From Parasphingorhabdus sp. (GTDB lineage: Bacteria > Pseudomonadota > Alphaproteobacteria > Sphingomonadales > Sphingomonadaceae): a stretch of DNA of 64,000 nucleotides. Shown here one piece after another: positions 52,829-53,155 of this stretch. The notes beneath the pieces are model-generated. The model had not been told where the DNA came from. It did not search any database and was given only the letters and a program-made list of their open reading frames with translations. Both the position numbers and the translations under genes were made by a program. The stretch is from assembly GCF_036963805.1 (NCBI RefSeq), contig NZ_JBALUN010000009.1, positions 314 to 64,313 of the forward strand, given 5' to 3'. Position 1 is the first letter of the stretch, and each line of letters opens with the position of its first letter.

Positions 52829-52905
52829 TGGCGCACCCGACAGGATTCGAACCTGTGACCTTCGCCTTCGGAGGGCGACACTCTATCCAGCTGAGCTACG
52901 GGTGC
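52829..52905 (-). tRNA. tRNA-Arg(CCG), 77 nt, CCA encoded, variant anticodon stem
   Basis: Full cloverleaf: GCACCCG/CGGGTGC, GCTC/GAGT, TCGCC-CTCCGAA-GGCGA, ACAGG-TTCGAAT-CCTGT. Confidence 0.95.
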
Positions 52906-53028
52906 ATACTGCTTACGCAGTGCTTACGCGGAAATTTTGGCGGTGTGAAGACAATATGGCCAAAACCTGTAAGTTACGTAAAACAAACGAAAAAAATTCC
53001 TTTCTATTTTCAGCTCTCAGCTTGACAC

Positions 53029-53072
53029 CTGCCTTCGGAGGGCAGCGCTCTATCCAGCTGAGCTACGGGTGC
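53029..53072 (-). pseudogene. 5' half (44 nt) of tRNA-Arg(CCG) ending after the anticodon arm; candidate att junction
   Basis: GCACCCGTAGCTCAGCTGGATAGAGCGCTGCCCTCCGAAGGCAG then unrelated sequence; TTGGCA-N17-CTAAGC at 53126-53098 upstream. Confidence 0.85.
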
Positions 53073-53155
53073 TGAGGCATATCTGCCAAGTAAAAGCGCT
53101 TAGCAGCGGGGATGCCGCTTTGCCAATCACTAATTTGGAAGATAGTGGGTCTATT

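Follow-up and report, generated by a model that had tools for sequence, protein, structure and literature searches.

Disrupt and replace at tRNA-Arg(CCG): evidence for alphaproteobacterial ICEs that split a host tRNA gene and bring their own

ICEMlSymR7A integrates at tRNA-Phe and ICEclc at tRNA-Gly. Canonical islands rebuild the tRNA gene that they target from a portion of that tRNA borne on attP (Islander; PMC4383910). A different logic is followed by the ICEPmu1/ICEMh1-type ICEs of the Pasteurellaceae, which disrupt tRNA-Leu at the anticodon loop and replace it (PMC6028734; arm sites and allele divergence were not analysed in that paper). Similarly, the pelagiphages HTVC119P and HTVC200P disrupt tRNA-Leu, and the phage tRNA-Leu 'is likely used instead' (bioRxiv 10.1101/410191), while Lo5R7ANS-like prophages inactivate and replace tRNA-Leu(UAG) in Sinorhizobium meliloti, the phage copy resembling that of another alphaproteobacterial genus (PMC11476347). 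The locus described here, at which a host tRNA-Arg(CCG) gene is split beside a complete second copy, had been regarded in a preliminary description as the opposite of what most tRNA-targeting elements do; in the light of the precedents just cited it is less exceptional than was assumed there. It shares with the Pasteurellaceae ICEs the disrupt-and-replace logic and the use of the anticodon loop, but concerns tRNA-Arg(CCG) in Alphaproteobacteria rather than tRNA-Leu in Gammaproteobacteria. With the pelagiphages and the Lo5R7ANS-like prophages it has in common a tRNA disrupted without complementation at the junction and a mobile copy in its place, whereas those are phages, with other tRNAs and other integrases, known from anecdotal reports without a family-wide survey. 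The principle of 'disrupt and replace' is thus already published for other elements, and the present finding extends a known design, one that is widespread in Alphaproteobacteria. The literature searched, coverage of which was incomplete, contained no account of this tRNA-Arg(CCG) family of Alphaproteobacteria, of its arm sites or of how widely it occurs.

The window, by which we mean the whole 64,000-nucleotide stretch of Parasphingorhabdus sp. DNA that was analysed, carries close to one element end both a 5' fragment of tRNA-Arg(CCG) and a complete gene for the same isoacceptor (Table 1). The fragment corresponds to tRNA positions 1-44 and differs from the full tRNA at five of them. At the last position of the D stem a C in the fragment is a T in the full copy, giving a G-U pair, and the other four differences fall in the anticodon stem, CTGCC/GGCAG in the fragment against TCGCC/GGCGA in the copy. 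Similarity to tRNA fades by about position 50 (window 53023), so that the fragment measures 44-50 nt overall, and the product of the junction lacks the T arm and the 3' acceptor strand. It scores 24.5 bits with the Rfam tRNA model, under the gathering score of 29, as against 69.4 bits for the full gene. Restoration of the gene at the junction, the hallmark of a canonical tRNA island, is therefore not seen here. In the whole assembly there are exactly three sequences that resemble tRNA-Arg(CCG), namely the full gene, the 5' fragment and a 45-nt 3' half, which lies on a separate contig next to an integrase gene (C20:5838-5882). The 3' half reads CTCCGAAGGCAG-AGGTC-ACAGA-TTCGAAT-TCTGT-CGGGTGC-A-CCA; it begins at the anticodon loop and includes GGCAG, which pairs with the CTGCC of the fragment. 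When positions 1-32 of the fragment are joined to the C20 piece, the product is accepted by ARAGORN as a valid tRNA, and it is identical to the tRNA gene of four sibling species. The target tRNA is present as one non-functional piece at either end of the element, with a complete isoacceptor 123 bp inside attL.

Comparison with relatives indicates which of the two genes belongs to the host. A search of 40 genomes, including 24 of the same genus, with the two flanks joined in silico found that in most of the 24 same-genus genomes the DUF6491-nth flank runs into an intact tRNA gene. In all 18 same-genus loci that were aligned, the allele is GAGCGCTGCC-CTCCGAA-GGCAG, identical to that of the fragment, and the gene stands intact behind the same promoter and flank, with no fragment; in one relative (G022) the match extends, at 95% identity, a further 166 bp into the flank on C20. 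The allele of the full copy was not found among the 24 same-genus genomes searched. Since the relatives share the allele, the flank and the promoter with the split gene, the fragment and the 3' half are, on these alignments, the host's own gene in its original place, whose genus does not share the allele of the full copy. The preliminary description, which was made from the window alone, fares well on these points. Its account of a 44-nt fragment with five structure-preserving differences, 123 bp from the full tRNA, was accurate; the native 3' half that it predicted, starting with GGCAG and ending in CCA, was found on C20 at the far end of the element, beside the integrase; and its central proposal, that the element splits the host tRNA and brings its own complete replacement, agrees with that 3' half, with the intact empty sites and with the genus-foreign allele. 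The outcomes that it had named as contrary, relatives with fragment plus variant or the variant as the usual allele of the genus, were not encountered in these genomes. It had further proposed a sigma70-like promoter on the chromosomal side, TTGGCA-N17-CTAAGC. This sequence fails an E. coli-type consensus scan, which called no promoter or terminator in 52600-53300, but the block in which it lies, ATTGGCAAAGCGGC...CGCTGCTAAGCGC, is nearly invariant upstream of the intact tRNA in 18 of 18 aligned same-genus relatives, and on the strength of that conservation it is very probably the native promoter.

The surroundings of the 3' half on C20 are themselves repetitive. The final 14 nt of the native tRNA (TGTCGGGTGCACCA), together with about 120 bp of downstream flank, occur twice at 96% identity, at C20:5869-6069 after the 3' half and at C11:50456-50860 near the end of C11. 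The genes at C20:6070-22675 encode a TetR regulator, a BadF-type ATPase, an acyl-CoA ligase and a TonB receptor, and this region has probably inserted, as a second event, into the same tRNA locus, because the flank is duplicated and the flank of G022 continues on the C11 copy. A 78-bp repeat (AAAAACAYCTTACGAAGCTCTTCGGG...GATGTTACA) is found once in the interior of C20 (C20:5992-6069) and at the ends of C11, C23 (both ends), C36 and C58, and may form the end of a mobile element whose repetition interrupts the assembly.

The complete gene differs from the native one at 8 of 77 positions, all of them structure-preserving: three compensated base pairs, one G-C to G-U change and a discriminator changed from A to G. 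Near-identical copies accompany related elements in other orders. The Arg tRNA anticodons of this genome are CCT, ACG, TCT and CCG only, with no other CCG and no UCG, and the full copy is consequently the sole decoder of CGG, a codon that accounts for 23.5% of Arg codons in long ORFs (13.7 per thousand codons). It follows from this dependence that the element-borne tRNA gene must be expressed and functional, as judged from the gene content of the assembly. No terminator was called in the stretch from the native promoter to the full tRNA, the 123-bp spacer included, and no convincing promoter was found in the spacer; our best guess is that the copy would be transcribed by read-through from the retained native promoter and then processed by RNase P.

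The junctions reveal an attachment site with recognisable anatomy. The block shared by attL and attR, CTCCGAAGGCAG, comprises the anticodon loop and the 3' strand of the anticodon stem, and strand exchange must fall inside these 12 nt; in a related element (in genome G032, see below) the shared block is 10 nt, CTCCGAAGGC. Beyond the core lies the spacer that separates fragment and full tRNA, and the loci surveyed below have homologous spacers in which a conserved TGTCAAG follows the core. The spacer ends with CGCGTAAGCACTGCGTAAGCAG (window 52928-52910), and a matching tandem motif, CACGTAAGCACCACGTAAGCAC, stands at C20:5689-5707, a short way upstream of where the integrase gene starts; nowhere else in the 3.9-Mb genome does the tandem motif occur. 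Of the 69 listed loci that have a full tRNA, 67 carry the P' pair at +111..114 and +122..125 from the core, whereas anything from 11 to 160 nt separates the pair from the tRNA. On the P side a pair at about -148/-137 is present in this genome and in five further elements with integrases 60-84% identical to this one; in G443, where the integrase is 57% identical, the integrase side has one copy of the motif plus a variant. Because the motifs are locked in position to the core, occur on both sides of it and are spaced one helical turn apart, as the sites of arm-domain integrases look, we infer that the CGTAAGCA pairs are arm-type integrase sites. The 123-bp spacer is then explained, since the full tRNA sits just beyond an arm of the att site, and attP would have the order int, P arm, CTCCGAAGGCAG, GTGTCAAG..., tRNA. 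The survey thereby yields a position-locked natural map of the att site, consisting of the core and two CGTAAGCA pairs at -148/-137 and +112/+123.

The integrase gene at C20:4336-5676 (446 aa) is directly upstream of the 3' half and reads away from it. Its product has an Arm-DNA-bind_3 domain (PF13356, 1.6e-15) and a Phage_integrase domain (PF00589, 1.6e-17), and the catalytic Arg, His-x-x-Arg, His and Tyr are all present (TGCRRGE, HVLRHS, IGHAKG, SKYVH), features by which it is assigned to the P4-type (arm-domain) tyrosine integrases. The element also carries DUF2840, an SLT transglycosylase, a relaxase with DUF3363 (5036-6781), a HipA gene, the coupling protein TraG (8708-10717) and TrbB, TrbE, TrbL and TrbI (21776-30967), with an RND efflux pump as cargo in the same region. 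Relaxase, coupling protein and type IV secretion genes are thus combined with a recombinase and flanking 12-nt att repeats (window 53040-53029 and C20:5838-5849), as expected of an ICE. A HipA-type kinase toxin gene and a small upstream partner (6797-8427) lie between relaxase and TraG. The cargo beside the tRNA comprises PhyR, an HWE kinase, a Crp-type regulator, two MscS proteins, a hemerythrin, DUF2254, two YetF proteins, a PLD protein and a baeRF/host-attachment protein. Between TrbI and this cargo are two tandem recombinases that overlap each other. They were considered as a nested island with a tRNA-Arg site of its own, and this was rejected as no core or fragment adjoins them; they are about 30% identical to the C20 integrase and are not the enzyme that serves this att site. 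The same recombinase pair occurs at C1:37469-39768, in a paralogous ICE.

In this genome the element is at least 59 kb long and is spread over contigs C9, to which the window belongs, and C20, in an assembly of 67 contigs. Closing it by overlaps of contig ends did not succeed: the start of C9 has no exact overlap, and the start of C20 shares 77-mers with C13 and C29. Contig C1 opens with a second ICE, whose backbone genes follow the same order (C1:1-39768). Its end has 85-88% nucleotide identity to the start of C9, and it and the ICE of the window match the proteins of the G032 element about equally; it has no tRNA-Arg(CCG) fragment and for that reason must use another site. The backbone of the window ICE (DUF3363 relaxase, SLT, TraG, Trb) we take to resemble that of ICEMlSymR7A-like alphaproteobacterial ICEs. 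The Pasteurellaceae ICEs have an ICEHin1056-type conjugation system and are not known to carry this Trb/TraG/DUF3363-relaxase set. The gene set argues for a lineage independent of the Pasteurellaceae ICEs, and it is a shared logic rather than common descent that we claim. With canonical P4-type islands the element shares an arm-domain tyrosine integrase, a tRNA attB, the anticodon-loop class of crossover and a distal 3' fragment. Where canonical islands have a gene rebuilt at the junction, however, this element has a dead fragment and a separate complete gene, and unlike theirs its integrase is at the end away from the functional tRNA.

Table 1. Features of the tRNA-Arg(CCG) locus and the adjoining element, in window coordinates
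Feature	Position	Strand	Basis or remark
Conjugation backbone and further cargo	1..30967		Pfam; runs off window and contig start
Two tandem arm-domain tyrosine recombinases	31294..33746	+	Pfam; inside element
General-stress-response cargo beside tRNA	33734..52828		Pfam scans; 18-kb gene set at 33734-52217
Complete element-borne tRNA-Arg(CCG)	52829..52905	-	ARAGORN; sole tRNA in window
Element-side arm (P' arm) of att site	52906..53028	-	123-bp spacer between fragment and full tRNA
Tandem CGTAAGCA-N3-CGTAAGCA, candidate arm-type integrase sites of P' arm	52910..52928	-	Position, conservation
att core CTCCGAAGGCAG	53029..53040	-	12-nt block common to attL and attR (C20:5838-5849)
5' part of split native tRNA-Arg(CCG), host side of attL	53029..53072	-	Allele GAGCGCTGCC...GGCAG as in relatives
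Candidate promoter of native tRNA-Arg(CCG), TTGGCA-N17-CTAAGC	53098..53126	-	Chromosomal side of attL; read from sequence
Chromosomal flank	53156..55064	-	DUF6491 gene 53156-53563, nth 53657-54295, dapB 54303-55064; Pfam

The same layout recurs well beyond this genome. A complete 45-kb homologue lies on a single contig in a member of another family (G032), with the same order of backbone genes and with an integrase, TrbE and TraG that are 78%, 66% and 71% identical to those of this element; its ends read 5' fragment, 127 bp, full tRNA, element, integrase, and core plus 3' half. When one genome per species was scanned for CTCCGAAGGCNGNTGTCAA, there were at least 120 matching stretches, and 80 loci among the matches listed. 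Positions 1-32 of the tRNA stand upstream of the core in 66 of these 80 listed loci, a complete tRNA-Arg(CCG) is found within 420 bp in 69 (six more end at a contig edge), and both 5' fragment and full tRNA are present in 59, representing at least 59 alphaproteobacterial species. Among the hosts in the listed matches are Novosphingobium, Sphingomonas, Parasphingorhabdus, Bradyrhizobium, Hyphomicrobium, Roseovarius, Paracoccus, Hyphomonas, Parvibaculum, Breoghania and Roseibium. The whole arrangement can be followed along one strand in five contiguous assemblies (Parasphingorhabdus DH2-15, Breoghania, Roseibium marinum, Sphingomonas ID0503 and Woodsholea), where 5' fragment and full tRNA are succeeded by 33-94 kb of element and the 3' half. 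In Parasphingorhabdus sp. DH2-15 (L168; G441:C1:2509781-2543359) this layout goes with an integrase that is only 33% identical and with no GTAAGC arm motif, and such divergence means that more than one integrase lineage uses the design. One identical element-borne tRNA is shared by at least 10 species of several orders, among them species of Roseibium, Novosphingobium, Sphingomonas, Hyphomonas, Hirschia and Woodsholea. Such identical tRNAs, and the homologous elements in different orders, are indirect evidence for excision and conjugative transfer. Paracoccus marinaquae (L059; G447:C76:40480-40914) has two successive 5' fragments followed by a full tRNA-Arg(CCG), with 179-bp spacing, an array implying that an element inserted into the tRNA carried by another. 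On the chromosome of a Stappia sp. (L055; G446:C1:2479101-2494415) there is an attP-like junction in which the integrase is followed by 171 bp, the core, the arm and a full tRNA; the same chromosome keeps an intact native tRNA-Arg(CCG) at another place, 15 kb upstream there is a 3' tRNA fragment of 55 nt, and the whole may be a tandem or secondary-site arrangement.

Taken together, we are confident, although short of certain, that a Trb-type ICE with a P4-type integrase split the only native tRNA-Arg(CCG) at its anticodon loop and supplies a different natural allele in its stead. According to this scheme the integrase would have recombined attP with the anticodon-loop DNA of the single native gene, and since the att site carries only about 12-18 nt of tRNA-like core, the junction does not rebuild the gene. 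The native gene is left as a 5' piece behind its own promoter at attL, with its 3' half at attR beside the integrase and the full tRNA directly beyond the P' arm. Precise excision would be expected to restore the native gene, whereas imprecise loss of the left end would remove the only CGG decoder, a cost by which the element may be stabilised. More speculative, and in our estimation rather unlikely, is an extended version in which the copy serves as a CGG lock permitting precise excision only, as a portable attB for stacking, and as a gene whose stem difference is kept by selection. If it were true, only precise, integrase-mediated excision would be tolerated, as the sole CGG decoder of the host is part of the element; every host would gain a fresh portable attB on which further elements could stack, as in the nested array of P. 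marinaquae; and the stem difference seen in 57 of 59 listed loci would be kept by selection against recombination of the copy with the attL core or fragment.

A related idea, raised in the preliminary description, is that the altered anticodon stem was itself selected so that the integrase, or homologous recombination with the fragment, cannot target the copy. It is favoured by the fact that copy and split host gene have unlike anticodon stems in those 57 loci, that the right side of the core is matched less well by the copy than by the host allele in 37 of the 59, and that 24 of the 59 have the change within the 10-nt core, with GGT or GCC in place of GGC. Conversely, in 12 of the 59 listed loci the copy is a closer match to the core than the host gene is, several with 13 nt of perfect identity, and in two the stems are the same; fragment and copy still have 25 identical nt; and in P. 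marinaquae a later insertion has in turn cut an element-borne copy in two. The loci are, moreover, phylogenetically non-independent, as alleles travel with element lineages, so that 57 of 59 can arise from a few old lineages. The TCGCC/GGCGA stem was also considered as an allele peculiar to elements and rejected as such: it occurs in 10 of 401 class-level genomes, in seven of which no fragment or core lies upstream. The stem is thus apparently native in other lineages, and what had been called 'recoded' is more aptly called 'a different natural allele'. Given the nested array, the better-matching copies and the occurrence of TCGCC elsewhere, protection of the copy from the element's own integrase is improbable. 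The differences are best read as reflecting foreign origin and not design, and selection for divergence would not be needed to account for them.

Still less probable is canonical integration, by which the full tRNA would be a restored chimera of host 5' and element 3' parts and the fragment an older unrelated relic or a local duplication. Most tRNA islands do work canonically (PMC4383910), and a full tRNA with a distal 3' fragment is also the picture that a canonical island presents. Nevertheless, the copy departs from the native allele on both sides of the anticodon stem by changes that covary, which a crossover in the loop cannot produce; the native promoter is upstream of the fragment, not of the full copy; the relatives have no fragment; the arm motif of the spacer pairs with that of the integrase-side arm; and identical full copies are found in different orders. 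That the fragment is a product of chance or of assembly is favoured by the fragmentation of this assembly alone and is scarcely credible in view of an E value of 2.3e-11 for its BLAST match to the full tRNA within the genome and of dozens of independent assemblies, complete chromosomes included, that share the layout.

Replacement of the split gene by the copy on the ICE, as we read the locus, has consequences for how islands are mapped and how tRNA gene sets are read. Mapping that relies on a tRNA with a distal 3' fragment would class these elements as canonical, miss the left boundary by about 170 bp and credit the host with the tRNA of the element. For the bacteria themselves, the finding means that many Alphaproteobacteria routinely swap an essential translation gene for a horizontally acquired allele, and that in the present Parasphingorhabdus a gene owned by a mobile element is needed for nearly a quarter of the Arg codons.
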